Source: Deltaproteobacteria bacterium
GTDB lineage: Bacteria; Myxococcota_A; Polyangia; Nannocystales; Nannocystaceae
DNA: 44,857 nucleotides
Assembly (NCBI GenBank): GCA_947492135.1
Contig: CANLQR010000004.1
Location: forward strand, 1 to 44,857
Direction of reading: 5' to 3'
The notes beneath the pieces are model-generated. The model had not been told where the DNA came from. It searched no databases and saw only the letters and a list, made by a program, of their open reading frames with translations. Numbering within the stretch: the stretch's first letter is position 1; the number at the start of each line of letters is the position of its first letter. Below, one piece after another: positions 346 through 37,993 of this stretch. Both the position numbers and the translations under genes were made by a program.

Positions 346-460
346 GACTCTCCACAACCCCAACGGATGCGGTGCCGCCGGCACCGTGAGCCACATCGGA
401 AACCCTGGGCGACGCGGATCGTGGGAACACGCGGGTTCGCGCTAGAGTCACGGAGTCGGC

Positions 461-3400: not shown

Positions 3401-3481
3401 CGCGTCAACGCGGGCGACGAGGTCAGCTTTGCGGTGGAGGGCGGCGGGACGGTGACGTTGATCGCGGGCAAGCCGGTGTAG
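461..3481 (+). CDS. Large secreted multi-domain protein: N-terminal signal/TM, at least 9 carboxypeptidase-regulatory-like (CarboxypepD_reg/transthyretin-like) repeats, C-terminal PDZ domain
   Basis: 1006-aa ORF. The N-terminus has a hydrophobic segment (VVLAACAALLWWWF). The motif G(R/K)VxDxxGxPVxxAxV recurs at least 9 times. The C-terminus reads IRPGSPAANSELKIGDVIVEVDGQDV, which is typical of a PDZ domain. Protein-like composition, unlike the overlapping Arg-rich shadow ORFs. Confidence 0.75.
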   Translation: MSASSRRWVMGAVVLAACAALLWWWFGRSPAPESASATTAAAGAKAPPRAAKPIGSELEQDRTSASTMPWNRPKTSISGKVTDEAGKPVARAHVCAVLSGRRLPDALSRKPSCTTSAADGVYVLSKLPPMRVSVAASAATYQPGHYDPPGKFDSIDLRAGKEVTGIDIILLSGGVEIRGIVKDIAGGVVEDATVATRQGWGWGSAAGRSFTKTDAQGEFSAWVAPGEVSVSATAQGYAPGDKDGPAPGYTFEILLTPESVIAGRVVRASDGAPVADANVTVEQSFFGGGGGGTYTDADGYFRLDRLEPGRYKPSAESPEFYGQLTESIRLGLGQTVDDVVITAHPMASLRGRIVVAGTDTPCERGSVDVTGRVSKHTAHAEVDVGGEVVVAALPPDTYSIDVNCSGYVAKATYPEIVIAEAAIVDQVWEVDAGIVARGIVVDQDGKPIAKASVSARPVGAAARGQQTFGWGQKSDDKGAFEIDGLIAGTYEMVADHDDYVSPETPPRITLGDDDKGTETRLVLEAGGVIAGRVLDANRRAVSGASVSVVGKQWWGGSAANTGDDGSFTMKAVRPGDHRVVAQRGWFNEMRAPGTTDDDIQGVPVSVRAGETTSVDLVVEEQFGKIEGKVVDSDGGPVDDAFVHATRETDSAAASAKGSRASVRWGAWSRTPALTEGDGTFVLDDLEVGKHTVMAMRKGGGEGVVESVSTGTSGVVIKLSEGGSIAGKVSLSAGGAPRRFSLSLAAPSAGFWREESFFETAGAWRMSDLPAGTYDVTATATEGTTTTKVELTVGAAKSGVDLVLTPKVDVTGTLVDVKTGAPVPGMKVSIGLRKGGGFSFGSDEGNLEDVSDDAGKFTVRAAPSGAVRIMVTPRNFFGADDTSYGWHNITAMIPAENRRYELPPLKLAASRTKLRERGGDFGITFKEGDPEQESEDVPLRIAVIRPGSPAANSELKIGDVIVEVDGQDVTGSNKYLYYSLTRVNAGDEVSFAVEGGGTVTLIAGKPV

Positions 3482-5786: not shown

Positions 5787-6779
5787 ATGGCGACGTTTGC
5801 GACGCCTCGCCGTGGTGATACGTTCCGCCTCGCGATGCTCGTCCTGCCCAAGGCCTCCTGGTGGCGATACGTCCGCCGCTACTCGGGCAGCGAGCTACCG
5901 CGGACCAAATATCGGATCGCCGGCGTGCTCCTGGTCGGCGTGCTCGTCACGTTCCTCGAGGAGCATCACGACTGGCATCCGAACCTCACGTCGCTGCCGT
6001 TCACGCTGGTCGGCGTCGCGCTCGGCATCTTCCTCGGCTTTCGCAACAACGCCAGCTACGATCGCTGGTGGGAGGGCCGCAAGATCTGGGGCAGCGCCAC
6101 CAACGGCGCCCGATCACTGACCCGGCAGATCCTCACGCTGGTGGGGCCGCAGCCTGGCGCGATCGAGGTCGACACCGCGGCCGTCGCCCGGCTCCACACC
6201 GAGCTCGTCCACCGCGTCATCGCCTGGGCCCACGCGTTGCGGCTGTCGCTGCGTGCCGAGGATGGCGCCACCACGCTGGCCCGGTTGCTTCCCGCCGAAG
6301 AGGTCGAACGCCTGACCACCCAGAGCAATCCGGCCTACGCGATCACGCAGGGGACCGCGGATCGACTTCGAGACGCCTATGCACGGGGCTGGGTCCATCC
6401 CATGCACCTGGTCGTACTCGAGCAGTCGCTGACCTCGCTGACCGACGTCCAAGGCGCCGCCGAGCGCATCCAGAACACGCCGATCCCGTTCTCGTACACC
6501 ACACTCATCCACCGCATCACGGCGGTGTACTGCTACGCCCTGCCCTTCGGCGTGGTCGACACGGTCGGGCTATTCACCCCGTTCGTGGTCGGCATCGTCG
6601 CGTATGCGTTCTTCGGCCTCGACGTGATCGGCGAGGAGATCGACATGCCCTTCGGCAAGGACCCCAACGACCTGCCGCTGAACGCGATCACCCGGACGAT
6701 CGAGATCAACCTCCGGCAGCGCCTCGGGGAGACCGACCTGCCGCCGATGCTCGTACCGATCGACGACGTCCTGGACTGA
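5787..6779 (+). CDS. Bestrophin/UPF0187 (YneE-like) family anion channel
   Basis: The LGFRNNASYDRWWEGRKIWG signature closely matches the bacterial bestrophin motif (LGFRNNxSYDRYWEARKLWG). TM helices precede it. The start is chosen at the ATG at 5787 with a GAGGA 5 nt upstream, just after the HD gene stop; the longer track ORF (5595) overlaps the HD gene. Confidence 0.75.
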   Translation: MATFATPRRGDTFRLAMLVLPKASWWRYVRRYSGSELPRTKYRIAGVLLVGVLVTFLEEHHDWHPNLTSLPFTLVGVALGIFLGFRNNASYDRWWEGRKIWGSATNGARSLTRQILTLVGPQPGAIEVDTAAVARLHTELVHRVIAWAHALRLSLRAEDGATTLARLLPAEEVERLTTQSNPAYAITQGTADRLRDAYARGWVHPMHLVVLEQSLTSLTDVQGAAERIQNTPIPFSYTTLIHRITAVYCYALPFGVVDTVGLFTPFVVGIVAYAFFGLDVIGEEIDMPFGKDPNDLPLNAITRTIEINLRQRLGETDLPPMLVPIDDVLD

Positions 6780-7967: not shown

Positions 7968-9092
7968 ATGCGTACCTCGATTTCGTGCCTTTCCACCGCC
8001 CTTGTCCTCGCCTGCCCGCTCGCCGTCGGTTGCTACGGTCCCGCGGACGCCGGCAACGACCACGACGCTGGCGCCTCGACCGGTGAGGCACAGGAGTCCG
8101 AGGGCAGCGACGACGCCAGCTCGACGACCCCCGAGCCCGGCGACGACGACGGCAACGAGGACAGCAGCGACGACGGTGCCGACGCCGGCGAGGATCCCGA
8201 CACCACCGCGGGCGACACCGGCGAGGTGGTCGACACCACGCCGCCGACTCTGGTGAGCAGCGTGCCCGCCGACGGCGACGTGGGGATCTACGCCGACACC
8301 CAGATCCGGCTGGTCTTCTCCGAGCCCATGGACAAGGCCAGCGTTCAGGTCGCCTACCAGAGCGCCGATCTGCCCGAGTTTTTCGTGACCATGGCCTGGA
8401 ACGACGACGGCGACGAGCTGGTCATCACGCCCGCCGGCCTGCTCGAGTACGGCGCCGCATCGTCGCCCGCCGAGGTCATCCCACGGGTCTACACCCTGAC
8501 GATCACCACCGCCGCGACCGACGTCGCCGGCAACGAGCTCGAGCAGGACGCGACCGTCGCGTTCACCACCCTCAAGGCCATCGTCCACGACCTGCCGATC
8601 GTCGCCGCTCTCACCGGCGCGGTGCGCCAGGACGGCGACGCCTACCCCGGGTTCATCATGGCCGGCGACGCGGCCCTCCCGGCCAACGCGCGGTGGAAGG
8701 GCTTCGTGTCGTTCGGCCTCGACGATCTACCCGACGACATCGCGATGTTCGTCGCCGCCGAGCTGGCCTACGAACAGCTCGACGTAATCGGCAGCCCCTA
8801 TGACGATCTCGGATCGCTCGAGATCCACGACGTGGTCTTCGGCGCGACCGATCTGACGGCGTTCGAGGCCGCGTCGACGGGTCCGGTGGGCATCAGCGAC
8901 GAGGTTGGCCTGGGCCAGGACACCTTCGACGTGACCCCGGCGCTGCAGGCCGATCTCGCGGCGGGTGCCGACCTCACCCAGTTCCGCTTCGAGTTCCCGG
9001 TCGCGTCCGACTTCGACGACGCCTACGACTACGCATTGTTCAGCGCGACGGATCCGGGCCCAGTGCTGCGCGTCGGCTACCTCATCCCGTGA
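7968..9092 (+). CDS. Acidic secreted lipoprotein with an SbsA-type Ig-like (Big_5) domain
   Basis: ATG at 7968 is preceded by GGAGAA. Lipoprotein signal MRTSISCLSTALVLACPLAVGC, then an Asp/Glu/Ser-rich linker, then TTPPTLVSSVPADGDVGIYADTQIRLVFSEPMDKASV, which is typical of SbsA_Ig. The 3' end overlaps the convergent kinase gene by 16 nt. Confidence 0.6.
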   Translation: MRTSISCLSTALVLACPLAVGCYGPADAGNDHDAGASTGEAQESEGSDDASSTTPEPGDDDGNEDSSDDGADAGEDPDTTAGDTGEVVDTTPPTLVSSVPADGDVGIYADTQIRLVFSEPMDKASVQVAYQSADLPEFFVTMAWNDDGDELVITPAGLLEYGAASSPAEVIPRVYTLTITTAATDVAGNELEQDATVAFTTLKAIVHDLPIVAALTGAVRQDGDAYPGFIMAGDAALPANARWKGFVSFGLDDLPDDIAMFVAAELAYEQLDVIGSPYDDLGSLEIHDVVFGATDLTAFEAASTGPVGISDEVGLGQDTFDVTPALQADLAAGADLTQFRFEFPVASDFDDAYDYALFSATDPGPVLRVGYLIP

Positions 9093-11872
9093 GCCGGTGT
9101 CCCCAGCGCCCGCCGCATCGACAGCTCGATCAACCGCAACAGGTTGGTCGAGCGGTCGGCGTTGGTGGTGCCGGCTCCGGCATAGATCCGTTCGGCCTCG
9201 ACCGCCCGGCCGATCGCCGCGTCGAGCTCGCCGTCGAGCCCATCGAGCCGCGACAGCTGGGCCAGAGCCAGGGCGGTATCCGGCGAGCTGGGGCTGTTGG
9301 CCCGCAGCGCCAGCACGCGATCGAGCTCGGTGCGGGCGTCGACGAACCGACCGAGATCGACCAGGACCAGCGCGCGGGCCTGGTGAGTGTGGGCGGTCTG
9401 AATGTGATCGGCGCCGATCGTGGCGACTTCGATGTCGGCGACCTGGTCGAGCCGCGCCAGCGCCTCGTCGAAGCGGCCCTGGCGGCGGCGCACCTCGGCG
9501 AGGTTCATGAGCACGCGCGCGGTCCGGGCGTCCTTGCGCGGCCCGGCGATCGCGAGCGCGCGCTCGAAGGCGAGCTCGGCCGCGGCAAGGTCGTCGCGCG
9601 CGTTCTCGATGGCGCCGAGGTTCAACCAGCCCGACACCACCCACGCGTGTTCGGGCCCATAGGTCGCGACGAACACCTCGATGGCACGGCGGGTGTACGC
9701 AGCGGCGGCCTCGAGGTCGGCGCCCGTCTGCGCCGCGAGGCCCAGGTTCATCAGCGCTCCGCCGACCCGGGGGTGCAGCGCGCCCAGTCGCGCCACCGCC
9801 TCGTCGTGCAGCGGGAGCAGCATGGCCCGCGCCTCGTGGTGACGACCCAGGCCGAGCAGCGTCGACGCGGTGGTCATGCGCGCGTGCCAAAGCTGGGATG
9901 CATCGCCATCGGCGGCGGACTCGAGCACCGCGATCGCCCGTCGGCACGCGACCAACGCGTCCTCGGGGCGGCCCTGGGCATCGTGGAGCTGACACGCGGC
10001 GCGGGCGATCCCGGCCTCGAGCTCGGGGTGCGATCCGTCGACCCGCGCGAGCGAGGCCTCGGCATGGCGGAGCCACTGCGCGGCGGCCTCGAGCTCCGCG
10101 GTGCGCGTGCGCTCGGTCGCGGCACCGTAGGCGCGGCGCGTCGCACGACGTGGCTGATCCAGAGCCATGGCAATCGCGTGGGAGTGCTCGATCGCTTCGG
10201 CGCCCGAGCCCGGCGACTGCTCGCCGCGGGCCAGGCCCAGCACGAACAGCGCGTCGCCTCGCGTCGCCTCGCCACCGTTGGCCTCGTCGAGGCTCGCGGT
10301 CGCGATCGCGATCGCGGTGGCATAGTCGCCGGCGAGGTGGGCGGCGCGTGCCGTCGCGATCCGACTGTCGATCGTGCCGTCGATGGCGGCGTCCTCGGTG
10401 CCTGCCCGCGACTCGGGTGACTCGCACTCGCGCGGGTCGGGCAGGCCATCGACGGCCGCCAGGGCGCGCTCGGCCAGCTTGGGCGACGCCTCGCCGAGGC
10501 GAGCGACCAGTGCGTCGGCGGTCGCGAGGCCCTCGCGCAGGCAGCCGACCCGCCGATCCAGCAAGGTCTCGTCCGCGACCCCATCATGCCACGTCGCTCG
10601 ACACGCGCCGACGTGGCGATCGATCCACCGCTCGCCCCACGCATCGACGGCCGCGCCGACGTTGGCCGCGGTGGTCTCGGCGTAGGGCACACCGGTGGCG
10701 CGTAGCGCCCGGCCGATCGCATCACGACGATCGGCGGTCCACACCGCGTCGAGCTCGGCGCGCGCCACCGCCGGATCGCAGCGTGGTCCGGTGTCCTCGC
10801 GCGCGTTGTAGACCCAGCCGAGCACACCGAGCCCACCGACGACACCCAGGCCCACCACCGCCAGCCGTCGACGTCGTCGCGACGCCCGCCCGATCGCAGC
10901 CAACAGCGCGGTCATGGACTCGAAGCGCATCGCCGGGTCGGCCGCCAGCGCGCGCTGCAGCAGCGGCGCGAACCAGCCCGGCACACCGCCGGTGACCGGT
11001 GGCACGGGCGGTCCGCGATCGATCGCGTCCAACAGCTCGATCGACGTCCGACCGGCAAACGGCGGCACGCCGAACACGACCTCCCACGCGGTCACCGCGA
11101 ATCCGAACTGATCGCTGCTGGCGTCGGCCCGCCCGCCCCGGTGCTGCTCGGGGGCCATGTAGCGCGGCGTGCCCATGATCGCGCCGGTCCGCGTCAGCGA
11201 CGACGACAGCGCCTCGTCGCGATCGTGTGCTCGCACGTCCGTCTCCGACGCGTCCGTGCGATCGTCGCGGGCCAGGCCGAAGTCTGCGACCTTCGCGGTG
11301 CCATCGTCCCCGACCAGGACGTTGGCGGGCTTGAAGTCGCGGTGGATCAGCCGGCGCGCGTGGGCGGTGCTCAGCCCGGCGCCGGCACCGACCAGCCACC
11401 GCAGCGCCGCCTCGAACCGATCGCGAGTGCCCGGCGAATGTTCGTGCGCCCACCGCTGCAGGGTCGTGCCGCGCACCAGCTCCATGGCGATGAAGTCGCG
11501 GCCGTCGATCGTACCGACCTCGAACACCTTCACCAGCCCGGGGTCGTCGACCGCGGCCATCGCCCGCGCCTCGCGGCGCAGCCGCTCGGTCGCGCCCCCC
11601 GATCCCAACGGCCGCAGGATCTTCACTGCGACCGCACGGGCCAGCGTGGTGTCGAGCGCCTCGTAGACCTCGCCGAACGCCCCCGCGCCGAGCCGTCGCA
11701 CGATTTGATAGCGCCCGAAGGATTCCGGCGGCGACTCGGTGCCGAACAACGACGCGAGCACGCCGCCGAGCCCATGACGGCCACCCAGGGTCAGCGGCGT
11801 GTCGGGGACGCGGGCCACGGCGGACGACGCGGACGCCTCGGACTCGTCGTCGTCACTGGACACGGGCGGCAC
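9077..11872 (-). CDS. Ser/Thr protein kinase with a TM segment and a C-terminal TPR-repeat region
   Basis: N-terminal kinase domain (GRYQIVRRLGAGAFGEVYEA...VAVKIL; HRDFKPANVLV; DFGLAR; GTPRYMAPE), a TM helix (VVGLGVVGGLGVLGW) and a long TPR/Ala-rich tail. Divergent (40 bp) from an ECF sigma-factor gene. Confidence 0.85.
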   Translation of the reverse strand: MPPVSSDDDESEASASSAVARVPDTPLTLGGRHGLGGVLASLFGTESPPESFGRYQIVRRLGAGAFGEVYEALDTTLARAVAVKILRPLGSGGATERLRREARAMAAVDDPGLVKVFEVGTIDGRDFIAMELVRGTTLQRWAHEHSPGTRDRFEAALRWLVGAGAGLSTAHARRLIHRDFKPANVLVGDDGTAKVADFGLARDDRTDASETDVRAHDRDEALSSSLTRTGAIMGTPRYMAPEQHRGGRADASSDQFGFAVTAWEVVFGVPPFAGRTSIELLDAIDRGPPVPPVTGGVPGWFAPLLQRALAADPAMRFESMTALLAAIGRASRRRRRLAVVGLGVVGGLGVLGWVYNAREDTGPRCDPAVARAELDAVWTADRRDAIGRALRATGVPYAETTAANVGAAVDAWGERWIDRHVGACRATWHDGVADETLLDRRVGCLREGLATADALVARLGEASPKLAERALAAVDGLPDPRECESPESRAGTEDAAIDGTIDSRIATARAAHLAGDYATAIAIATASLDEANGGEATRGDALFVLGLARGEQSPGSGAEAIEHSHAIAMALDQPRRATRRAYGAATERTRTAELEAAAQWLRHAEASLARVDGSHPELEAGIARAACQLHDAQGRPEDALVACRRAIAVLESAADGDASQLWHARMTTASTLLGLGRHHEARAMLLPLHDEAVARLGALHPRVGGALMNLGLAAQTGADLEAAAAYTRRAIEVFVATYGPEHAWVVSGWLNLGAIENARDDLAAAELAFERALAIAGPRKDARTARVLMNLAEVRRRQGRFDEALARLDQVADIEVATIGADHIQTAHTHQARALVLVDLGRFVDARTELDRVLALRANSPSSPDTALALAQLSRLDGLDGELDAAIGRAVEAERIYAGAGTTNADRSTNLLRLIELSMRRALGTPAHGMR

Positions 11873-11912
11873 GAGTCTACCCGAGGGCGGGTCGTGCTAG
11901 CGTGGCAGCGGC

Positions 11913-24349: not shown

Positions 24350-25840
24350 TCACGGCTCGAACGGATCGAACGTCCCGTCGGGTCGGAGCTTCGGCGTTGG
24401 TGGCGTCGTTGCGGGAACCGGCGTCGGATCACTGGACCTGCCGTTTTTAGGCGCCTTGGGCCGGCGCGGCTGGACCGCGGCTGGCTCGCGCGGTGGGATC
24501 GCGGCTGGTTCGAGCTCGGAGGCGTCTGGCGGTTGCGGCGACAGGTTCGCAGGGACGACCGGTGCGACCACGGGCGGCACGGAGATCGGCTGCACCTGCT
24601 GGGGCGCCGCCGGCGTCTGCTCCGACGGCCCAGCGAGCACCGGAGCCTCCGGCAGTTCGGACACCGGCTCGTGGATTCTTTCGGGTAGCGGCTTCACGTC
24701 ACCACGCGTCGTCATCCAGATCGCGCCCGCGAGTCCCGCCGCCGCGAGCAGTCCGCCGCCGACCCATGCCAGGCCCGAGCGCGAAGGCGCGAGCCGCTGC
24801 GCGGGCACGTCGGAGAACATGGTCGGCTGCGACAGCGGCGTCATGCTCACAGGCGCGACCGTGAACCCCCGGGTGCCGACCCCGAGCAACTCCGCACGCA
24901 ACGCATGGACGTCCGGGTAACGCTCGTCGCGAACCTTGAGCAAGCAGCGCGCGACGATCGCTTCGAGCTCCGCCGGCAGCTCGGGCACCTGGGTGCGCAG
25001 CAACGGTGCAACCTCGAACAGCTGGGCGTAGAGCAGCTCCACCACGCTGTCGGGCGACCACGGACGTCGCCCCGCGAGCATCTCGAACAGCACGATACCG
25101 AGCGCGTAGATGTCGGCGCGGGCATCGATGCGGTCGCCACGAACCTGCTCCGGGGCCATGTACGCGGGCGTCCCGAACACCTGGCCCGAGCGCGTCGGCA
25201 CCCGCACGCGGTCCACCACATCGTTGGCCTTGGCCAGCCCGAAATCGATGATCTTCGCGCTGGGTCGGCCATGGCTGTCGTGAATCACCAGCACATTGGA
25301 CGACTTGAGGTCGCGATGGATGATCCCGAGCTCATGCGCGCGCCCGAGGCCGTCGCAGAGCTGCACCGCGAGCTCGACCGCCTGTGGCCAGCGCACTCGC
25401 CCTTGCTCGGCGATCCACGCCGACAACGGCTGGCCGCGCACGCGCTCCATCACCACGTACGGGCGGTCGGCCGTCAGGAAACCAAAGTCGAGGACCGACA
25501 CCACGTTCGGATGATCGATCTGGGCGAGCAACTCGGCCTCGCGCCGCAGTCGCTCGCCCGCCTCGGGATCGCCCACAGCGGGGTGGAGGATCTTGACGGC
25601 AACCTTGCGTGGAAGCGCGAGGTCTTCAGCCTCCCAGACCACGCCCATCCCGCCGGCACCGATCTTCGCGCCGAGCTTGTAGCGACCGCCGAGGACCTCT
25701 TGCGTTCGTGAGCCATGAAGCGTCGCCACGAGCTGCGAATCGGGCAGCAAGGTGTCGGCCGCCGACGCCGGCAGCGTTGGGCTGCGCCCTGAGTCCTCGG
25801 AGGCCATGGAGCTTCTCGCGAGTGTACTGCATCGGAACAA
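24350..25840 (-). CDS. Ser/Thr protein kinase (membrane, Pro-rich C-terminal tail)
   Basis: GRYKLGAKIGAGGMGVVWEA...VAVKIL; HRDLKSSNVLV; DFGLAK; GTPAYMAPE. A TM helix after the kinase domain, then a Pro-rich tail. The start may be the internal ATG at 25810 (MASEDS...). Confidence 0.85.
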   Translation of the reverse strand: MFRCSTLARSSMASEDSGRSPTLPASAADTLLPDSQLVATLHGSRTQEVLGGRYKLGAKIGAGGMGVVWEAEDLALPRKVAVKILHPAVGDPEAGERLRREAELLAQIDHPNVVSVLDFGFLTADRPYVVMERVRGQPLSAWIAEQGRVRWPQAVELAVQLCDGLGRAHELGIIHRDLKSSNVLVIHDSHGRPSAKIIDFGLAKANDVVDRVRVPTRSGQVFGTPAYMAPEQVRGDRIDARADIYALGIVLFEMLAGRRPWSPDSVVELLYAQLFEVAPLLRTQVPELPAELEAIVARCLLKVRDERYPDVHALRAELLGVGTRGFTVAPVSMTPLSQPTMFSDVPAQRLAPSRSGLAWVGGGLLAAAGLAGAIWMTTRGDVKPLPERIHEPVSELPEAPVLAGPSEQTPAAPQQVQPISVPPVVAPVVPANLSPQPPDASELEPAAIPPREPAAVQPRRPKAPKNGRSSDPTPVPATTPPTPKLRPDGTFDPFEP

Positions 25841-26010
25841 CCCTGAACGCGAGCGCGCCGCCGCCGAGGTCGCGAGCGGCGGGTTGGCGCAGGGTAGCCG
25901 AAGGGATAGCCAGCCCTACGTGCCCGCGATGCGGCACGACGCGCTCGGCGAGGCGCAGCACCGCGCCCTCGCCCAACCCTGCGGATAGACGCCGCTACCC
26001 GCCACGATCC

Positions 26011-26038
26011 CCCTGCCTTGGCAGGGCGCAGCGCCCTG
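26011..26038. promoter_or_regulatory. Two overlapping perfect inverted repeats (ccctgcc-tt-ggcaggg and cagggcgc-a-gcgccctg) about 55 bp upstream of the antitoxin start
   Basis: Read directly in the divergent region between the STK start (25840) and the antitoxin start (26090). Candidate operator for TA autoregulation. Confidence 0.4.
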
Positions 26039-26089
26039 ATTGCGTCACCTCCCGTCCGCGTCTACAGTTTCGTAGAGGGGCTTGCGACG

Positions 26090-26383
26090 ATGGCCGACAC
26101 GCAGATTTCCGCCTACATCTCCGAGGCGACCAAGCAGCAGGTCGAGCGCTACGCCGAGGCACACGGGGTGAAGAAGGGGCATCTCCTCGAGGAGGCCCTC
26201 CTCCATCACTTGCAGGCGCTGCGCGAGTTGCCCGCGGACATCGTGATTCCTCCGCGGCTCACGGTGACTGGCAGATCGTTCGAGGTGGTTGCCCGGGTCG
26301 TGAAAAAGCCGCGCAAGCCAACCAAGGCCCTCCGCGACCTGATGGCCGGAAAGGCGGTCGACGGCGGGCCCGAGAGCACGTGA
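26090..26383 (+). CDS. RHH-type antitoxin (DUF1778/TacA-like)
   Basis: 97 aa. MADTQISAYISEATKQQVERYAEAHGVKKGHLLEEALLHHLQ is an RHH/DUF1778-like N-terminus. The stop overlaps the GTG of the downstream GNAT gene (caCGTGAcg). Confidence 0.65.
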   Translation: MADTQISAYISEATKQQVERYAEAHGVKKGHLLEEALLHHLQALRELPADIVIPPRLTVTGRSFEVVARVVKKPRKPTKALRDLMAGKAVDGGPEST

Positions 26384-26901
26384 CGCTCACGATCCGCAAG
26401 CTCGGCCCGGATGACGACCGGTCCGCGTTTCGCTCGGGGAACCCGGACCTCGATCGCTTCTTTGCCCGGTACGCCGCGCAAAACCAGTTCCGTCACCACA
26501 TCGGTACGACCTACGTCGCGATCGATGATGCGGGGGCGATCGTCGGCTTCGCGACGGTAGCCGCGGCCGAGATCGAGGCGGAGAAGATGCCGGCAACGAG
26601 GCGCAAGCGCCTGCCCAAGTACCCGCTGCCGGCGCTGCGCCTGGCCAGGTTGGCGGTCGACGAGCGCGCGAAGGGACAGGGCGTCGGCAGCGTGCTGCTC
26701 CGCGCAGTGCTGGTCCTTGCTCGACAGCTCGCCGACGACATCGGCTGCGTGGGAGTCGTGGTGGACGCGAAGCCCGAAGCCGTCGCGTTCTACGAGAAGC
26801 TCGGCTTCCTTCGGCTCGAGGTTGTCGCCGGAGAACTCGGTGATCGCCCGCAGCCGCTGCCGATGTTCCTCGAGCTGGGACAACTTGGACGCGCGAAATA
26901 G
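26380..26901 (+). CDS. GNAT-family acetyltransferase toxin (TacT/AtaT-like)
   Basis: 173 aa. GNAT acetyl-CoA motif (RLARLAVDERAKGQGVGSVLLRAVL...FYEKLGF). The 4-nt start/stop overlap with the antitoxin is the canonical arrangement of DUF1778-GNAT TA modules. Confidence 0.65.
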   Translation: MTLTIRKLGPDDDRSAFRSGNPDLDRFFARYAAQNQFRHHIGTTYVAIDDAGAIVGFATVAAAEIEAEKMPATRRKRLPKYPLPALRLARLAVDERAKGQGVGSVLLRAVLVLARQLADDIGCVGVVVDAKPEAVAFYEKLGFLRLEVVAGELGDRPQPLPMFLELGQLGRAK

Positions 26902-26929: not shown

Positions 26930-30040
<3,111 letters not shown>

Positions 30041-30152
30041 GGGGAAAGCTACCGCTCATCGACCACCAGCGCGAGGCCATCGGGCTGAGCGACGGCCACG
30101 CCGAGGGCGGCTTGCCTTGCGCGCGGCTGCCATGTAGTACCCACGGCATCGC

Positions 30153-32369
30153 ATGCGCGCACGGTTTCGAGGGCGGGTGGCATTCGTGGTGCTGGGTGTG
30201 CGGGCGAAGGATGTGCCCGGCGTCGCCGAAGAGGGGGCCGTCCGCGCGTGGATCCAGGCGATCCGTGCCGACCTCGAACAGGCGAGCTATGGCACCGTCG
30301 TGCCCGAGCTCGAATGGCGGGGCTGGCTCGAGAGCCCGCTGCTGCGCGAAGAGCTCGGCTGCCTCGAGCTCGCGGCCCTCGCCGCGCACGCGCGGACGCT
30401 GACCGCCGAGCCGGTCGCCGGCGGTGTGATCGCCGTGGTCAACTGCACGATCGGCCGCACCGGCACGACGGGTCGCGATGTCATCGCCCAGTGGATCACC
30501 GGCGGTGGACAAGGCGGCCTGCGTCGGTGCCGATACTGCGGCGCGCTTCACCTCGCACCCAACGCCTCGCTCTCGCACTGCTGGGGCAGCCCCGAGGGTG
30601 GCCACGCGTTCGATAGCCGCGAGACCTACGAGCTGCCGCGCGCCGCCGACGGCGACGCCCACTACCGGAACTGTTCGTCATGCCATGCGATCTGGGCGTT
30701 CGACGGCAACTCGCGTGGCCATTGCCCGAAGAATCCCAGCGGCCACACCGGCGGCGATCGCTACAGCATCGCGCGCACGGACTCGGGCGCAGGCGGCTGG
30801 GCCGAGTGCACCGCGTGTCAGCGCGTGATCGCCGTCGAACTCGCCGACCGCGGCTGCATCGACAGCCAACCCTGTGCACCGGTGGCGCATACCCTGGCGA
30901 CCGATCATCCTTTGACGATCGCGCAGGAGTCCTTCCCGAGCCTGAGCTGGGGCACGCGCGCGCTCGCGGAGGCGCTGGGCGTGCACGGTGATCTCGATGC
31001 CACCGGCCGGGGCACTCGTGCGGCACCACATCCGCGCTTCACCGAGCGCGGTCCGGCGCCGTCGGCCGCGGCGGCGTGGTTGGCGGGATGGCTGCACCCC
31101 GATCGCGTCATCACGCGGATGTGGAAACCCGGTGACCGCTACGAAGTCGAGCTCGGCTTTGCCGACGCCGCCGCCCCGGCACGCGTGCTGCTGCAGATCG
31201 CCGCGCCCGCGGCCGTCTATGGCATCGAGCTGCGGCCCAATCACGGCAACGACGCGCACCTGCACGTCGACGAGTCGTTGCAACTGCGCCGATTCCTCGG
31301 CCGTGGCGCGCTGGGTGTCCCGGGTTGGCGCGCGTGCCAGGCCTGCGGCGCCGCGGTCGACAGCAGCTCGCGGAGCTGCGCCGCCGGCGGTCTGCACGAG
31401 TACGACCCCACCGAGTTCGCGGTGCCATTCGACCGCGGCTATGTGCGTGCGACCGCCGGGTGGCGACGATGCGTGGGTTGCAACGGCCTGTGGCACGAGG
31501 CTTCGGGGGACGGCAGCACGTGTGCGGCCGGCGGTCCCCATCGCAGCGATGCGACCACGGCGTATGCCCTACGTCCCAGCGAGACGACCACCGGCTTTCG
31601 GGCGTGCAGCAAGTGCCGTGCGCTGGTCGATCCGCAGCTCGCAGGCACGATGTGCGGAGCGGGTGGCACTCACGAGGTCCGGCGAAGTCCGTATTTTTCG
31701 CTCGATGTCATGCGCCGGGGCGCGACGGCGCAACATGGCTGGTCGACCTGCCGCAAGTGCGGGATCGTGGGGTTCACCGCGTCGCAGTCGTGCGCCAAGT
31801 CGGGCGGCGCGCACGTGCTCGAGGCCAGCGATCATGTGCCCGAACGCTGGGGCGTGGTCCCGGGGATCACGTCGGCGTGGCGCTGCACCCAGTGCGCGTG
31901 CATGTTCGGCCGCGCCGGCGTCTGCACCCGCGGCGGGCGCCATCGCAGCGCCGGGATGTTCCCCGACTTTGCCCTTCGTGACGCTGCGGCGGTCGATCGC
32001 GCCCTCACGCCAACAGCCACCGAGCCGCAGTTCCCCGAGGGCGTGCCGGCACTGCTGGCATTGCGCCGCAGCTGGCAGATCTGTCGCGACTGCGGGGTGG
32101 TGTTTTCGCTGGCCACAGCCGCCGCATGCCCGTCGACCAAGAAAAAGCATGTCGCGGGCAGCCCCACCCTGCGGATGAGCAGCGACACCCTCGAGGGCCG
32201 CCGCGTGCTCGTGGGCCTCGGCGACGCGCTCGCAGCCGATCGCGATGGCTTCGTGGTGCGAGTCGTTCGCCGCGACGAGCACGGCGTCATGCTGGTGGTG
32301 GAACCCGCCGGGGCCGCCGCAAAACCGGCGCGAAGAGCCAAGACCAACTTCATCCGACGGCGACGCTGA
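30153..32369 (+). CDS. Protein of unknown function with nine tandem W-x2-C-x2-C-x(11-17)-C-x(2-3)-G-G-x-H (Cys3-His) modules
   Basis: 738 aa, protein-like composition. Nine copies of the module are seen, e.g. WRACQACGAAVDSSSRSCAAGGLHEY, WRRCVGCNGLWHEASGDGSTCAAGGPHRS, FRACSKCRALVDPQLAGTMCGAGGTHEV, WSTCRKCGIVGFTASQSCAKSGGAHVL, WQICRDCGVVFSLATAAACPSTKKKHVAG. No signal peptide. It is divergent from one STK gene and tail-to-tail (2-nt gap) with another. Confidence 0.6.
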   Translation: MRARFRGRVAFVVLGVRAKDVPGVAEEGAVRAWIQAIRADLEQASYGTVVPELEWRGWLESPLLREELGCLELAALAAHARTLTAEPVAGGVIAVVNCTIGRTGTTGRDVIAQWITGGGQGGLRRCRYCGALHLAPNASLSHCWGSPEGGHAFDSRETYELPRAADGDAHYRNCSSCHAIWAFDGNSRGHCPKNPSGHTGGDRYSIARTDSGAGGWAECTACQRVIAVELADRGCIDSQPCAPVAHTLATDHPLTIAQESFPSLSWGTRALAEALGVHGDLDATGRGTRAAPHPRFTERGPAPSAAAAWLAGWLHPDRVITRMWKPGDRYEVELGFADAAAPARVLLQIAAPAAVYGIELRPNHGNDAHLHVDESLQLRRFLGRGALGVPGWRACQACGAAVDSSSRSCAAGGLHEYDPTEFAVPFDRGYVRATAGWRRCVGCNGLWHEASGDGSTCAAGGPHRSDATTAYALRPSETTTGFRACSKCRALVDPQLAGTMCGAGGTHEVRRSPYFSLDVMRRGATAQHGWSTCRKCGIVGFTASQSCAKSGGAHVLEASDHVPERWGVVPGITSAWRCTQCACMFGRAGVCTRGGRHRSAGMFPDFALRDAAAVDRALTPTATEPQFPEGVPALLALRRSWQICRDCGVVFSLATAAACPSTKKKHVAGSPTLRMSSDTLEGRRVLVGLGDALAADRDGFVVRVVRRDEHGVMLVVEPAGAAAKPARRAKTNFIRRRR

Positions 32370-32371: not shown

Positions 32372-35317
32372 TCATCGCGCGGCTTCGAGCCACGCGATCA
32401 TCTCGTCCCGTTCGCGTCGGGCGACCCCTTCGCTGTCGGCAAGGGCTGCGATCGCGATGCGGATCTGCTCGCGCCCCCGTTCGGCGAGCGTCGGTGCGGC
32501 GAGCCACGCTCGACCGAGCGCGAAGCGAGCCGAGGCCTGAACGCGAGGATAGGCGCGAGGGGTCGGCGCGAAGATCGTGAGCGCGCGCTGGAGGGCAGCG
32601 ACTCCCCGAGCCACCTCACCGCGCTGCAACAGCGCACGCCCGAGCCCCACCAGCACGAACCCGATCGCCCGCGCATCAGGCCCATAGGTCTGCTCGAGGC
32701 GCAGCAACGCCTCCTCGAAGGCGACCAACGCCTCGTCATGGCGCCCCATGGCCGACAACACTACCGCACGCAGGTCGATACGACCGAGCAGATCCGGATG
32801 GTGCTGATCCTCGGGCAGTTGCGGCTCGTCGATCCACTCGGCCTGCGCGAGTGCCTCGTCGTGTCGGCCCAGATCGAGCAGAGCCAGCGCCATGCCGTTG
32901 CGCATCCACCCCTGTTGCAGGCCAGTCTGCAGGTCGCGCTGCATGTTGCTGATCGTGGCCGGTGCGTGGACCGGATCGGGGCGTTGGGTCTGGTACTCCA
33001 GCGCCTCGGCATACGTGGCCAGCGCCTGCGAGGCATCACCGCGCTCCCACGCGACGTCCGCGAGGTGACCCAGGGTGTGGCTCACCCAGACCGAATCGGC
33101 GCCGAAGACCTCGCGGCGGATGGCCAGAGCGTCGCCGAAGTACCGGTTTGCGGTGGCGAAGTCACCGACCACGAAGTAGGTCTCGGCAAGGTTGCCCGAG
33201 GCATTGGCCACCATGATGTGATGGGGTCTGAGGTCTTCGGTGACGATCGCGAGCGCGCGGGCGTAGTGCGGGCGCGCGGCCTCGTAGTCACCGCGGCGAA
33301 ACTCGGTCTCACCGATGAGGTTGTGGGCCTGCGCGAGCCAGCGTCGGCTCGCAGGGCCGCTGCGCTCGAACTGCGCACGAGCACGCTCGAGCAACCCAGC
33401 GGCGTCACCATCACGTTCCATCATCATGATCTCGGCCAGGCACAGCTCGATGCGACCCACGAGCTCGGGTGGATCGCCCATCGCTGCGGCCGCGACGCGG
33501 GCGCGTTGCTGACTGAGTTTCGCGCGCACGTAGTCGCCCTGCGCAAGATCGGATTCCATCGACGCCACCAGTGCCAGGGCGATCAGGTCGGGGCGGCGAG
33601 ACGACTCCGCCGCAAGTACGGCCGCGTGCATCGTCGCGGCCGGATCGACCTCATCGACGCTGCCGAGCAAGGGGTTCTGGAGCTCGGCGGTGACCAGCAG
33701 CGCCTCGGCCTCGAGCGAGCGCAGGCCGAGATCTCGAGCCCTGCGCGTGGCGTCGCGAGCAGCGGCGAGCCCTTCGACGAGCTTGCCGACGTCGCCGTAG
33801 GTCCTCGCGGTGGCGATGGCTGCACGCAGCTCGAGATCTTGCTCGGGATCATGGGCCGGCGCGTCCGCTGCCGGCACGACGTAGAGGCATTCGCCCGGCG
33901 CCCGCCCAGCGGAACCACCGATCGCGGTGTGCTCGACCATCTGGGCGTCGGCGCGAGCGAACGCCGTGGCCATCGACTCGAGCTCGAGCAACCGGGTGTG
34001 TAGACAGTACTGCTGGGCGATGCGCGTGCCATCGTCGACCGTCGCGGTACACGCCGCGTCGTGGGCCGCTCGCCAGGCCTCGCCAAAGCGATCGAACTCG
34101 AACACCAGGCGATCGGCGCGCTCCTCGGCGTGGCTCGACCCGCTGGCCGCGAACGCCTCGCGAATGCGCCTGGCCGCCGACGCATTCCATACCGCGGCGA
34201 GCCGATCGGAGCCGTGCTCGCAACCGGCGTTGGCGGCATCGACACGCTGTCGCAGCAAACCCAGGGTTGCCAGGCCGACGGCCGCAATTCCCAGCCAGCG
34301 CCGGGTTCGTCCCCGCGTCGGCTGCTCGAGCACCGCGAGCAGCGACGCCATGTCGGCGAAACGGCGCGCGGGATCGGTACTCAAGCCGCGTGTCACCAAA
34401 CCCCCGAGCCACCGCGGGACGTCGATCATCGGCGGACGCGGACGCGGCCGCTGCCGTCCAGCGGTGACGTTCGCGGCCAGCCCGGCGTGGTCGCGTCCAT
34501 CGAACGGGCGCTCGCCATACAGCGCCTCGGCGAGTGCCACGCAATACCCGAACTGATCAGAGCGCGCGTCGATCCGGCCCCCGAGGAATTGCTCGGGGGC
34601 CATGTACGCGGGCGTGCCGATCCCCGCGGTCGAGGTCGCCGTCTCGGCCACGGTGGTGTCGTCATCGGTACCCGCGACCCGAGCGATTCCGAAGTCCGAC
34701 ACCCGCACGCGGCCGTCGTTGCCGATCAGGACATTTTCGGGCTTGAAATCGCGATGCACGATCCCCGCGGTGTGGGCCGCCTGCAGGCCACGGGCAGCCT
34801 GCGTGAACACCTCCACCACCTCGCGCCAGGTCCGACGCGTGCCGAGCCACTGACGCAGGGTCGAACCCTCGACGAGCTCGAGCGCCACGAACACCCGACC
34901 TTGGTGGACCCCTGCGTCGAACACCGGCACGACGTTGGGGTGGGACAGCTTCGCCAACGACTTGGCCTCGCGGACCATCGCCGTCCGAGCGTCTTGCGGA
35001 CTCATCGTGTCGTGGAGCAGCTTGATCGCGACGCGGCGATCGAGCTGTGGAGCAGCCGCCATCCACACCTCGCCGCTCGCACCGCCGCCGAGACGCTCGA
35101 GCAACTGGTAGCGACCGACACTTGGCCCAGGCGCATCCCGTCCGAACAGTCGGGCTGCGAGTTGCGCGTGCCAATGCTCGGCCTGGAGGTCCCGACCCTC
35201 GGGGACGGCCTGTGCGACGCGGCCACCAAGGGCGTCGTCGATCCCGGCGAGTTTGGGCACGCGAGGTGAAGTTTCCCCCAAAATCGGCGACGTCGGGTCG
35301 AGACGCGTTGGGCGCAT
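32372..35317 (-). CDS. Ser/Thr protein kinase with a TPR-repeat C-terminal region
   Basis: Kinase domain GRYQLLERLGGGASGEVWMA...VAIKLL; HRDFKPENVLI; DFGIAR; GTPAYMAPE. TM, then TPR. The track ORF extends to 35449, but that would overlap the divergent lipoprotein gene start (35419) by 31 nt. I take the internal ATG at 35317 (MRPTRLDPTSPILGE...) as the likely start. Confidence 0.8.
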   Translation of the reverse strand: MRPTRLDPTSPILGETSPRVPKLAGIDDALGGRVAQAVPEGRDLQAEHWHAQLAARLFGRDAPGPSVGRYQLLERLGGGASGEVWMAAAPQLDRRVAIKLLHDTMSPQDARTAMVREAKSLAKLSHPNVVPVFDAGVHQGRVFVALELVEGSTLRQWLGTRRTWREVVEVFTQAARGLQAAHTAGIVHRDFKPENVLIGNDGRVRVSDFGIARVAGTDDDTTVAETATSTAGIGTPAYMAPEQFLGGRIDARSDQFGYCVALAEALYGERPFDGRDHAGLAANVTAGRQRPRPRPPMIDVPRWLGGLVTRGLSTDPARRFADMASLLAVLEQPTRGRTRRWLGIAAVGLATLGLLRQRVDAANAGCEHGSDRLAAVWNASAARRIREAFAASGSSHAEERADRLVFEFDRFGEAWRAAHDAACTATVDDGTRIAQQYCLHTRLLELESMATAFARADAQMVEHTAIGGSAGRAPGECLYVVPAADAPAHDPEQDLELRAAIATARTYGDVGKLVEGLAAARDATRRARDLGLRSLEAEALLVTAELQNPLLGSVDEVDPAATMHAAVLAAESSRRPDLIALALVASMESDLAQGDYVRAKLSQQRARVAAAAMGDPPELVGRIELCLAEIMMMERDGDAAGLLERARAQFERSGPASRRWLAQAHNLIGETEFRRGDYEAARPHYARALAIVTEDLRPHHIMVANASGNLAETYFVVGDFATANRYFGDALAIRREVFGADSVWVSHTLGHLADVAWERGDASQALATYAEALEYQTQRPDPVHAPATISNMQRDLQTGLQQGWMRNGMALALLDLGRHDEALAQAEWIDEPQLPEDQHHPDLLGRIDLRAVVLSAMGRHDEALVAFEEALLRLEQTYGPDARAIGFVLVGLGRALLQRGEVARGVAALQRALTIFAPTPRAYPRVQASARFALGRAWLAAPTLAERGREQIRIAIAALADSEGVARRERDEMIAWLEAAR

Positions 35318-35418
35318 GGTGACGGCCAGCACAACCGCGTCGCGCCGGGTTTCATTGGGCCCAGGTCCGCGCAATCGATCGCGATGGCCAGGGCCTCTAC
35401 CGCTGCCGGAGACACCCC

Positions 35419-36183
35419 ATGCCACGAACGACTTCACACCTTGGTCCATGCCTTGCCATCCTGAGCGGATTTTTCACCCAGCTGCCCGCGTGCGTGATCA
35501 GTGGCGATGGCGATGATGACAGCGGCGGTGAAAGTTCCGGCGCTGGCGATACCGACGACCCCAGCGCGACGATGACCGATCCAAGCGCGACCGCGAGTGC
35601 CTCCGACTCCGCGAGCGCCTCCGACTCCGCAAGCGCCTCCGACTCCGCGAGCGCGAGTGCGAGTGCGAGTGCGACCGCGAGCGACTCCGACTCCGCGAGT
35701 GCCTCCGACTCCGCAGACTCCGACTCCGCAGACTCCGGCTCTACCGCGGACGACTCCGGCGTCGACATCGTGCCCGCCGAGGGCCTATGGCAATACGAAG
35801 AAACCGGCGGTGGAACCAACGACTGCACGTTCCTGTCCGAGCCGAGCAACGGCTTCGGTCAGTTCCAGATCACGCTCACCGGACCTGCGAGCCTCACCCT
35901 CACGCCCGGCGACGAGACCGAGCCCTTCGAGTGCACGTTCGGCGGCGGCGCCTACGAATGTGCCGAGCGCCTGACCGGCATGACGGACGCTGCAGCTGGG
36001 CTCGACGCGGTCGGCCGCATCTTGGTGTCACTCGACGGCACCTTCGACAGCGCGACCGCACTGGTGGGCACCCAGAACGGTTCGATCGTGTGCGAGGGGG
36101 CCGACTGCGGCGTCGCAGCCCAGGCCCTGGGAGTCGCGTTCCCGTGCGCGTTCACGATCCCATTCATCGGTACCGCGCTGTGA
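35419..36183 (+). CDS. Lipoprotein with an (SASDSA)n low-complexity linker and a C-terminal Cys-containing domain
   Basis: GGAGA lies 6 nt before the ATG. Signal/lipobox LGPCLAILSGFFTQLPAC. An 18-nt tandem-repeat region encodes SASDSASASDSASASDSA... The C-terminal domain has 8 Cys. Confidence 0.6.
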   Translation: MPRTTSHLGPCLAILSGFFTQLPACVISGDGDDDSGGESSGAGDTDDPSATMTDPSATASASDSASASDSASASDSASASASASATASDSDSASASDSADSDSADSGSTADDSGVDIVPAEGLWQYEETGGGTNDCTFLSEPSNGFGQFQITLTGPASLTLTPGDETEPFECTFGGGAYECAERLTGMTDAAAGLDAVGRILVSLDGTFDSATALVGTQNGSIVCEGADCGVAAQALGVAFPCAFTIPFIGTAL

Positions 36184-36196: not shown

Positions 36197-36838
36197 TCAC
36201 TGCGCGCGCCCGGCGATCTCGCGGATCGACCGGGCCCAGTCCTCGAGCCCGGCGAGCGTCGAGTGCAGCTCGGGTTCGCCCGCGCCGAGCTCGGCCAGTG
36301 CGGCCTCGAGCAGCTGGCGTGCTCGACGAATCCGCGTGCGGACGGTGCCCTCGGGGATCTCGAGCACGCCGGCGAGCTCCGCGGCGGACAAGTCTTCCCA
36401 GTAGTACAGCTCGAGTACGACCTGCAGCTCGACGGGAATCCGACGCAGCGCGTCGAGCAGCAGGCGATGCTCTCGGTGCTGGGCGACCAGCGTCGACGGC
36501 GACGGTGCTTGGTCGTGGACCGACTGCACCAGCGGATCGAAGCGCGCTTGATCGCGGCCGCCTCGGCGCAACGCGGCATAGAGCTCGTGCCGCGCCACCG
36601 TGAACAGATAGGTACGGAAGCTCGAGTCCCCGCGAAACTGCTCGCGGTTTTCGACCAGCGCCAACAATGTGCGCTGGATTAGATCGTCGACGCCGTCGCC
36701 CGCGAGCTTGTTGCGAAAGAACCGGCAAAGCGCGTCGAAGTGGCGCTCGAACAGAGCACTACCCGCCGCGGTATCGCCGGCACGCCAAGATCCGAGCAGC
36801 TCGATATCGGTGGGCAACGCCCCCGGAGCGTACCGCAC
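36197..36838 (-). CDS. ECF-type RNA polymerase sigma-70 factor
   Basis: Region 2 (DDLIQRTLLALVENREQFRGDSSFRTYLFTVARHELYAALRR) and region 4 (IPVELQVVLELYYWEDLSAAELAGVLEIPEGTVRTRIRRARQLL). The start is taken at the in-frame GTG at 36838 (a TTG at 36817 is possible); the upstream part of the track ORF is non-sigma-like. It lies 23 nt downstream of the Cys-rich lipoprotein gene on the same strand. Confidence 0.8.
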   Translation of the reverse strand: MRYAPGALPTDIELLGSWRAGDTAAGSALFERHFDALCRFFRNKLAGDGVDDLIQRTLLALVENREQFRGDSSFRTYLFTVARHELYAALRRGGRDQARFDPLVQSVHDQAPSPSTLVAQHREHRLLLDALRRIPVELQVVLELYYWEDLSAAELAGVLEIPEGTVRTRIRRARQLLEAALAELGAGEPELHSTLAGLEDWARSIREIAGRAQ

Positions 36839-36861
36839 CGGTGGCGGTAAGCCACGGTCGC

Positions 36862-37809
36862 CTAGGCCGGAATCAGGCAGGCGCCGACGGTCTCGTAGCC
36901 TGGCGGTGCCTGGCCCTCTTCGTACCAAGCGACGCACTCCTGGCCCCCGGCCGCGCCTGGGCAGTTCGCGGTCGAATCGGGATCGGTGAAGTCGCAGAAC
37001 GACGAGCAACAACCGATCGATCCGGCACACTCGGGCACGCCCTCGGGCGCAGCACAGAACAACCCGGGGTCGCAGACGTTGAGAAACTCGCAGCCCTCGC
37101 CGTACAGGCCCTGCTCGCCGCCGGCATCGGGGACGCACGAGAACGCGTCGTTGGTCGGATAGCAGGCCTCGCCCTCGGCACAATCCTGCAGCAGAGGATC
37201 ACAGTTTGGCAGACACAGGATCAGCACACCATCGTTGAGGATGTTGCAGCTGGTCGCGGGATCTTCACAGATGGGGTTCGCTTCAGAGCCCTCACAAAAC
37301 GCGACGCAGGTGCCGAGGTTGGTCTCCGGGTCGACGTTCCAGCACATCGAACTCTGCTCGCAGTTGTCGATGCCGCTGACACCCGAGCCCTCGACCGTAC
37401 ACGAGTCGCCGATCACCGCGGCGGCGTCGTCTTGCGGTGAACAGCGCGTCGCGTTCCACGAGTTGCCGCCGTCGTTTGCCCACGGCATGCACTTTTCGCC
37501 TTCCGGGCAATCCTGGGCCCATACGTCGCACTGGGTGCCGTCGATCCCGCCGTCGGGGTTGAGGATGAAGGTCCCGCCGTCGTCGTCGCCGCCACTGCTG
37601 GTCTGGGCGCCGGTCTCGACCCCGGGCTCGCTGGGGTCGACGGGCGGGTCGTCACTGGCATCGTCACTGCCGCTGCCGCCGCTGCTGCTGTCCTGGGCTT
37701 GGGTCGGGTCGACCGTCACGCTGGTTCCGGTGAGCGCGTCATCCTTGGGCGCGGCGCAAGCCACGGTCAGCAGCGCCAGCGCGCAATAGGGGGTCATACG
37801 GGTCTTCAT
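36862..37809 (-). CDS. Cys-rich secreted lipoprotein (myxobacterial Cys-rich repeat type)
   Basis: Signal/lipobox MKTRMTPYCALALLTVAC. An acidic Ser/Gly/Asp linker is followed by about 30 Cys in repeated C..C..C / CPEGE / CEGSE spacing. It appears co-transcribed with the downstream ECF sigma gene. Confidence 0.7.
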   Translation of the reverse strand: MKTRMTPYCALALLTVACAAPKDDALTGTSVTVDPTQAQDSSSGGSGSDDASDDPPVDPSEPGVETGAQTSSGGDDDGGTFILNPDGGIDGTQCDVWAQDCPEGEKCMPWANDGGNSWNATRCSPQDDAAAVIGDSCTVEGSGVSGIDNCEQSSMCWNVDPETNLGTCVAFCEGSEANPICEDPATSCNILNDGVLILCLPNCDPLLQDCAEGEACYPTNDAFSCVPDAGGEQGLYGEGCEFLNVCDPGLFCAAPEGVPECAGSIGCCSSFCDFTDPDSTANCPGAAGGQECVAWYEEGQAPPGYETVGACLIPA

Positions 37810-37993
37810 GGGCAGTTTCTCCTCGTGGGCGGGTGGAACCAGGGACGGTTTTACCTTGGACTCATAAACCTACAAACGCAACAGCTTAAACTAACAAATC
37901 TAATCTAACCCACAAAAATGCGCTTATCGCGCGGATTTGCTTCGGAACCGGACGATCGCTGCTACGCTGCGCACCCCCCGAAACCGAGGCCCG
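37810..37993. promoter_or_regulatory. AT-rich divergent promoter region between the Cys-rich lipoprotein/ECF sigma operon and the MVP-like gene
   Basis: The core 37861-37920 (ctcataaacctacaaacgcaacagcttaaactaacaaatctaatctaacccacaaaaatg) is about 35% GC in a 70% GC context. It contains repeated CTAA/TAAC motifs. GAGG lies 3-4 nt before the MVP ATG. Confidence 0.45.

Follow-up and report, generated by a model that had tools for sequence, protein, structure and literature searches.

The M11 peptidases or gametolysins (MEROPS M11, PF05548), which include the Akkermansia O-glycopeptidases OgpA (6z2o) and Amuc_1438 (8df2), and the M6 enzymes such as immune inhibitor A (InhA2, 4yu5; TIGR03296) are the closest described relatives of the protein reported here. 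M6 enzymes are secreted and active and lack Cys3His repeats. Inactive metallopeptidase homologues, ADAM22 among them, have been reviewed (PMC11266112), and the passages of that review on 'M11', 'bacterial' and 'prokaryot' mention no M11-like pseudopeptidase that is bacterial and cytoplasmic. We analysed 44 857 nucleotides of contig CANLQR010000004.1 (positions 1–44 857 of the forward strand; GenBank assembly GCA_947492135.1; Nannocystales, Nannocystaceae), referred to below as the window. A gene at 30153..32369 on the forward strand encodes a 738-residue protein with nine Cys3His modules. On balance, we favour the view that it is a dead cytoplasmic M11-like pseudopeptidase with nine Cys3His knuckles and a partner of the neighbouring kinase.

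The open reading frame (ORF) was present as the first-pass annotation, made from the sequence of the window, had described it. Its GC content at third codon positions (GC3) is 0.83 in frame, typical of real genes in this window of 70% GC, and full-length orthologues with 46–68% identity occur at seven other loci. The start codon (ATG at 30153) is backed by the conserved N-termini (MRARxRGRVAF) in the alignment of these orthologues, hereafter the clade. No signal peptide is predicted, in agreement with the first-pass annotation, and no transmembrane segment; residues 7–17 form the first β-strand of the protease fold described below. That annotation had recognized no named domain, and scans of the protein against Pfam, NCBIfam and PADLOC likewise gave no significant match, nor did a sequence search of the PDB give any match at E ≤ 10. 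The PADLOC anti-phage defence models matched neither the repeat protein nor its active relatives. The protein has a calculated isoelectric point (pI) of 8.9 and contains 10% Arg.

Protease fold and active site

The annotation had treated the protein as a pure repeat array: three copies of a module, a spacer of about 130 residues and six further copies. The module counts are correct, but the N-terminal 118 residues and the 'spacer' form an M11/gametolysin-like metzincin domain in which the active site is destroyed. The non-repeat parts were tested alone, since the repeats could have driven the similarity. A hidden Markov model (HMM) of residues 263–385 built from the clade found 67 relatives, down to an E value of 2e-16, and the matching segment always lies 40–55 residues after their HExxH motif. 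No relatives were retrieved with an HMM restricted to the N-subdomain. Comparison of the N-terminal 118 residues with the N-subdomains of 86 HExxH-bearing relatives by hhalign gave a probability of 96.8% and an E value of 2e-10. Based on these repeat-free profile matches, we assign residues 1–118 to one half of an M11-like catalytic domain and the 'spacer' to the other. All parts of the metzincin catalytic-domain fold are accounted for: a β-sheet/helix N-subdomain (residues 1–118; 30506 at its 3′ end, 30153..30506, forward strand), followed after an insertion by the remnant of the active-site helix and the C-terminal subdomain (residues 263–385; 30939..31307, forward strand), with helices predicted at residues 264–275 and 278–283.

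The assignment to M11 comes from the relatives. PF05548 does not match the window protein even at E ≤ 1. Family member P0013 passes Pfam Peptidase_M11 (PF05548) with 24.1 bits against a gathering cutoff of 21, other relatives have precomputed matches to PF05548 or PF13583, and one carries the JGI name 'Gametolysin peptidase M11'. P0011 and P0013 also show sub-threshold matches to the M6-domain model TIGR03296 on the same segment. Eight relatives found with the whole-protein profile and aligned with the clade share HExxHxx[G/Y]LxH followed by D-x-M, the signature of a metzincin zinc site and its Met-turn. Among solved metzincins, OgpA and Amuc_1438 are the nearest in structure.

In the window protein the HExxHxxGxxH…D-x-M motif is degenerate (residues 266–283, WGTRALAEALGVHGDLDA; 30948..31001, forward strand), as seen both in the alignment with the eight HExxH-bearing relatives and in a motif table of the ten clade members. 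The segment GHETGHCLGLQHS…YGDWYDLMSA of P0011 aligns with WGTRALAEALGVHG…DLDA of the window protein. The active-site segment of the latter reads G-T-R-A-L-A-E-A-L-G-V-H-G, with the first His replaced by Thr268, the catalytic Glu by Arg269 and the second His by Ala272; the position of the third His is not conserved. HExxH is absent from all ten clade members (P0001–P0010), in which the first His is replaced by T, V or L, the Glu by R, A, W, T or V and the second His by A or G, and the third His is kept in only four. The Met-turn, D-[LIPV]-M in the relatives, retains its Asp (Asp280) in the clade, with the Met changed to D, A, V or R, and the stretch from the third His to the Met-turn has lost approximately 25 residues. 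The former active-site helix is among the least conserved segments, with 17% invariant columns.

Homology to an active peptidase family coincides with loss of the catalytic residues and with purifying selection, seen in the conserved full-length orthologues at eight loci, the window included; the protein is very probably a dead M11-like metzincin. No proteolytic activity is predicted from the sequence. A peptidase that is still active through a non-canonical catalytic site would account for the retention of the metzincin fold and of the motifs that follow the helix (GP…GWL, Asp280 and Glu359). However, every clade member has substitutions of the first two His residues and the Glu, only four of the ten keep the third His, the Met is replaced, a deletion precedes the Met-turn and the helix is poorly conserved, and we regard such activity as very improbable. 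That the gene is an eroding M11 peptidase pseudogene without function is harder still to credit: the catalytic motif is lost and a linker and the C-terminal tail vary, as decay would predict, but intact full-length reading frames persist at eight distinct loci with 46–68% identity, 27 Cys and nine His residues are kept, 38–41% of the columns in the first two triplet domains are invariant and GC3 is of coding type.

Catalytic residues have also changed elsewhere in the family, with HQxxH (Glu to Gln) in P0020, P0207 and P0216, YExxH in P0027 and HNxxQ in P0057. From these sequences, catalysis appears to have been lost independently in other lineages, making conversion to a pseudoenzyme recurrent.

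The Cys3His triplet domain

A pattern scan finds nine CxxC…C…H modules, with their first Cys at residues 126, 174 and 219 and then at 395, 440, 485, 533, 578 and 644. Among 5.8 billion proteins only 11 share enough words with the window protein to be found as direct homologues, all of them metagenomic; ten constitute the clade (46–68% identity) and the remaining one is P0011 (25%). In the 11-sequence alignment essentially every one of the 27 Cys and nine His ligands is either invariant or conserved in at least 90% of the sequences, so that the periodic Cys and His positions noted in the first-pass annotation are maintained in homologues. The annotation had also proposed an HMM of the repeat. 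A triplet HMM built from sequences outside the clade recovers all nine units, with scores of 85.0, 50.6, 26.8 and 10.4 bits (E values from 2.5e-28 to 2.5e-5), compared with 7 bits for the best of 500 shuffles of the 738-residue protein. The nine-fold Cys3His repeat is real and far beyond chance.

Three modules together, about 140 residues, make up one structural unit; the single module does not. In 159 family proteins the number of units per protein peaks at 3, 6, 9 and 12, contiguous runs of three (73 runs) and six (79 runs) dominate, and the Cys count is approximately three per unit. The triplet HMM gives 243 full-length, in-register matches, and none of the nine Cys and three His residues varies among 49 diverse triplets. 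The units also carry conserved aromatic residues (Trp and Tyr).

The window protein contains three such domains, delimited by pattern, alignment, HMM, conservation and modelling. Triplet domain 1 (residues 119–262, units 1–3; 30507..30938, forward strand) is inserted inside the protease fold, an insertion also present in the HExxH-bearing relatives. Its ligand sets are Cys126/Cys129/Cys143/His151, Cys174/Cys177/Cys191/His198 and Cys219/Cys222/Cys235/His246, all invariant apart from His198 (at least 90% conserved). The outside-clade HMM matches residues 119–227 with an E value of 2e-10, and no other segment is as well conserved in the clade (41% invariant columns). Triplet domain 2 (residues 386–525, units 4–6; 31308..31727, forward strand), with the invariant sets Cys395/Cys398/Cys409/His415, Cys440/Cys443/Cys457/His463 and Cys485/Cys488/Cys501/His507, has 38% invariant columns and gives the best match to the outside-clade HMM (85 bits, E value of 2.5e-28). 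An AlphaFold2 model of residues 380–525 has a predicted local distance difference test (pLDDT) score of 86.8 and a predicted template modelling (pTM) score of 0.81, and its units are all-β. Triplet domain 3 (residues 526–672, units 7–9; 31728..32168, forward strand) has the sets Cys533/Cys536/Cys547/His554, Cys578/Cys581/Cys591/His597 and Cys644/Cys647/Cys659/His666, likewise invariant except for Cys581 and His666 (at least 90% conserved). A linker of about 40 residues preceding unit 9 (residues 601–640) is poorly conserved, with pLDDT below 50 at residues 604–621. The protein ends with a small all-β domain (residues 673–720; 32169..32312, forward strand; strands at 684–718, pLDDT 86–89), which is conserved within the clade, and a basic tail (residues 721–738), which is not. 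An HMM of the all-β domain matched nothing beyond the clade.

The confident triplet model matches no propeller, β-trefoil or other solved fold, so that the lectin-like propeller entertained in the first-pass annotation is not supported; nor does it resemble known lectin, carbohydrate-binding module (CBM) or solved zinc-ribbon structures. No Pfam or NCBIfam model covers the repeat, even in proteins with canonical repeats, and none of the precomputed Pfam matches on 120 relatives corresponds to it. Sub-threshold matches of single units in Pfam and NCBIfam are to Zn_ribbon_3, zf-ChsH2, zf_VAL1_N, IBR, Rpr2 and TFS4. The repeat is not described in the open literature that was searched (M11 with zinc ribbon, metzincin pseudoproteases, Cys3His tandem repeats and the motifs WRWC and CPAGG). 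It is nevertheless not rare: in a profile search of 1.84 billion representative sequences the module occurs in at least 2374 cluster representatives (50% identity) at E ≤ 1e-3 and in 1391 at E ≤ 1e-10, while about ten proteins match the whole-protein profile. The triplet family is therefore apparently undescribed yet common.

Its hosts include Streptomyces, Actinocrispum, Edaphobacter, Nannocystales and ascomycete fungi. The triplet is fused elsewhere to M11-like, M23, M36, S53 and AvrRpt2-like peptidases and DUF4185, as well as to the lectin-type domains Tachylectin, DUF346 and Laminin_G_3; the best NCBIfam matches of the M23 partner are peptidoglycan endopeptidases, all sub-threshold. A hydrophobic N-terminal stretch is found in only 17 of 228 complete family proteins, in about seven of which it is the first β-strand of the protease, leaving a credible signal peptide in only about ten; roughly 95% of the family lacks a classical signal peptide. 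The active member P0041 has an N-terminal DUF346 (PLL-like lectin propeller) array before its M11-plus-triplet core. The active M11-plus-triplet architecture also occurs in the ascomycetes Geoglossum, Leptodophora, Exophiala and Neophaeococcomyces, at 44–71% identity to P0011, and a P0011-like architecture is present at 45% identity in a metagenome-assembled genome (MAG) of Edaphobacter (Acidobacteriota). The fungal and acidobacterial relatives of P0011 concerned are P0161, P0162, P0168, P0190 and P0192, and this cross-kingdom spread suggests horizontal transfer.

The Cys3His pattern is invariant and the units are modelled as all-β, but no zinc-ribbon model reaches threshold. Zinc binding by these units is likely, and each knuckle probably holds one structural zinc ion, giving nine per chain. 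Zinc sites are favoured over disulfides because each unit has an odd number of Cys residues and an invariant His and the proteins are mostly leaderless.

Kinase neighbours and possible role

The gene lies between two Ser/Thr kinase genes with tetratricopeptide repeats (TPRs), in the geometry given in the first-pass annotation. The divergent gene (26930..30040, reverse strand), which shares an intergenic region of 112 nucleotides (30041..30152) with the pseudopeptidase gene, encodes a 1036-residue protein with an anti-sigma-like head, a kinase domain, a transmembrane segment (residues 371–399) and TPRs, as assigned by Pfam and transmembrane prediction. The head is a conserved N-terminal segment of about 45 residues (CPDPSxLExF…HLDRCSAC; about 29900–30040) containing an HxxxCxxC motif of anti-sigma type; zf-HC2 scores 19.3 bits here, just below its cutoff of 22.2, and the motif is kept in all seven orthologues of this kinase examined. 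The convergent gene (32372..35449, reverse strand; Pfam) encodes a TPR Ser/Thr kinase of 1025 residues, and its stop at 32372 is 2 nucleotides from the stop of the pseudopeptidase gene at 32369. The annotation had identified this gene correctly, but its start is probably at 35449, not 35317, as orthologue alignments begin at residues 6–12 of the longer ORF. The kinases match PADLOC only through generic kinase-domain homology.

The clade maps to MAGs of Nannocystales/Nannocystaceae and, besides the window, to seven distinct loci. An orthologue of the divergent kinase (about 1030 residues, 55–66% identity) is adjacent at six of these (L001, L002/3, L005, L006/7, L010 and L012), and this adjacency persists even where the repeat protein is only 46% identical. 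The convergent kinase (60–66% identity) occupies the same position at four (L002, L005, L010 and L012) and is absent at L001, L006 and L004/L011. The tight co-evolution with both kinases suggested in the annotation is thus borne out for the divergent kinase and only in part for the convergent one. The closest HExxH-bearing relatives, P0040 and P0049, show no kinase neighbour on their short contigs. The P0040 locus is flanked by genes for VanY (a D-Ala-D-Ala carboxypeptidase) and a Prok-JAB protein (1341–3077 and 6127–6678). In the window, a gene for an extracytoplasmic function (ECF) sigma factor (36197–37183, reverse strand) lies 4 kb away, and together with the anti-sigma head on a receptor kinase it suggests cross-talk between kinase and sigma factor.

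We propose that the ancestor was an M11/gametolysin-like, M6-related metzincin zinc protease and that its descendant would be cytoplasmic and catalytically dead, having kept the protease fold and the accessory domains, namely three triplet domains of about 140 residues, one between the N-subdomain and the former active-site helix and two behind the protease domain. Because the catalytic zinc ligands have been lost, together with the general-base Glu and the Met-turn, it could only bind and not cut, and triplet domains 1 and 2 would now be the main targets of selection. In Nannocystales a receptor-type Ser/Thr kinase bearing an anti-sigma-like head would have become its constant neighbour, and its own most likely role would be that of a binding partner in the kinase pathway, as adaptor, scaffold or substrate. 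The kinase partnership itself we put forward tentatively. Several observations weigh against the proposal. The divergent kinase is missing at L004/L011. The wider region, including the ECF sigma and vault-protein genes, is also syntenic in these fairly closely related Nannocystales MAGs, so that the adjacency could be inherited gene order and not functional coupling. With at least four kinase genes in the 45 kb window, three of them with TPRs (9077–11896, 24350–25915, 26930–30040 and 32372–35449, all on the reverse strand), proximity to a kinase could easily arise by chance and is weak evidence. The contigs of P0040 and P0049 are short, which makes their context inconclusive, and zinc binding is deduced only from the residue pattern. 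Finally, the fusion partners of the triplet elsewhere (M23, DUF4185 and lectins) hint at cell-wall or glycan targets, not signalling.

This last point leads to an explanation that we consider unlikely but worth stating, in which the protein is a non-catalytic, lectin-like binder of glycans or the cell wall: the triplet would be a carbohydrate or peptidoglycan module displayed by a dead protease scaffold, the protein would act extracellularly once freed by lysis or a non-classical route, and its proximity to kinase genes would be incidental. The whole set of enzyme and lectin fusions (M23, DUF4185, Tachylectin, DUF346, Laminin_G_3, M36, S53 and AvrRpt2-like) is in keeping with this, as are the VanY gene beside the closest active relative, the O-glycopeptidase activity of the nearest solved metzincins and the conserved aromatic residues of the units. 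However, the protein lacks a signal peptide, like about 95% of its family, and its units, with three Cys and one His each, are in keeping with a zinc-loaded protein in a reducing cytoplasm; furthermore, the triplet has no similarity to known lectin or CBM folds and the kinase adjacency is conserved. Nine zinc-knuckle-like units, the high pI, the Arg content, the basic tail and the fact that the weak unit matches are all to zinc-ribbon or zinc-finger families would instead suit a nucleic acid-binding multi-zinc-finger protein, a regulator or RNA-binding factor built on the dead protease scaffold. This is improbable in our judgement: the tail is not conserved in the clade, the zinc-finger matches all fall below threshold and the fusion partners in the family are hydrolases and lectins, with no nucleic-acid enzymes among them. 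A dead cytoplasmic pseudopeptidase that would partner the divergent kinase is the interpretation that we retain.

Several other genes in the window were noted. The most conserved gene of the neighbourhood (37904–40510, forward strand) encodes an 868-residue homologue of the eukaryotic major vault protein (MVP_shoulder and Vault_3), with orthologues of 86–91% identity at L001, L010 and L012. A 254-residue protein (35419–36183, forward strand) that has no Pfam match and contains a long low-complexity tract of Asp, Ser and Ala recurs with 68–76% identity at L010 and L012, flanked there as in the window by the convergent kinase and ECF sigma genes. A GNAT acetyltransferase gene (Acetyltransf_7/10/1; 26392–26898, forward strand) directly follows a small ORF of 98–121 residues (26018–26383, forward strand) without a Pfam match, a layout that resembles GNAT-type toxin–antitoxin pairs. 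A 1011-residue protein (446–3481, forward strand) contains nine CarboxypepD_reg repeats and a C-terminal PDZ domain.

Comparison with described systems

No long-standing question hinges on this protein, and its function remains a matter of inference. Myxobacteria have many orphan TPR Ser/Thr kinases, and for one of them the protein is a concrete, testable candidate partner. The triplet is a common domain family of bacteria and fungi without a Pfam, NCBIfam or PDB entry, predicted with high confidence to adopt a fold that has no solved relative, and is a clear target for structure determination and a family model. The apparent independent inactivations would make the family a useful system in which to follow the conversion of proteases into binding proteins. 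A broader proposal combines two elements: that the triplet is an undescribed zinc-binding fold with a targeting function, carried in Actinomycetota, Myxococcota, Acidobacteriota and ascomycetes by proteases that mostly lack a leader, by other enzyme-like domains and by lectins, and that one such protease in Nannocystales has turned into the dedicated non-catalytic partner of an anti-sigma-headed receptor kinase, which would make it a new type of accessory in kinase/ECF-sigma signalling. In this combined form we hold it to be rather doubtful.

Zinc ribbons and rubredoxin knuckles share with the triplet units a CxxC knuckle between two β-strands, a second ligand pair 10–20 residues further on and all-β structure. 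In the triplet, however, the second half-site is C-x(2–10)-H, whereas that of zinc ribbons is CxxC, and the units occur obligately in threes within one compact domain, for which no zinc-ribbon model reaches threshold and no solved zinc-ribbon structure gives a match. The β-trefoil lectins (ricin-B/CBM13) are of similar size (about 140 residues), consist of three internal repeats and are frequently fused to hydrolases, and the Q-x-x-W motif in the repeat recalls their QxW motif. Identity with a β-trefoil lectin was rejected, as the confident triplet model matches no twelve-strand trefoil fold.

As a pseudoenzyme, the protein would be a bacterial, cytoplasmic addition to the short list of inactive metzincins; ADAM22 (3g5c), in comparison, is eukaryotic and extracellular and belongs to another metzincin family (M12B). 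Similarity to the M6 enzymes is more distant, the scores of the relatives against TIGR03296 being below the curated cutoff. The M11 gametolysins, including OgpA and Amuc_1438, remain the nearest point of reference. In contrast to them, the window protein has no signal peptide and no Pfam M11 match of its own, its clade has lost the catalytic Glu and the first two zinc-ligand His residues in every member, keeps the third His in four of ten and has also lost the Met of the Met-turn, and a Cys3His triplet of about 140 residues interrupts its catalytic domain, which two further triplets follow.

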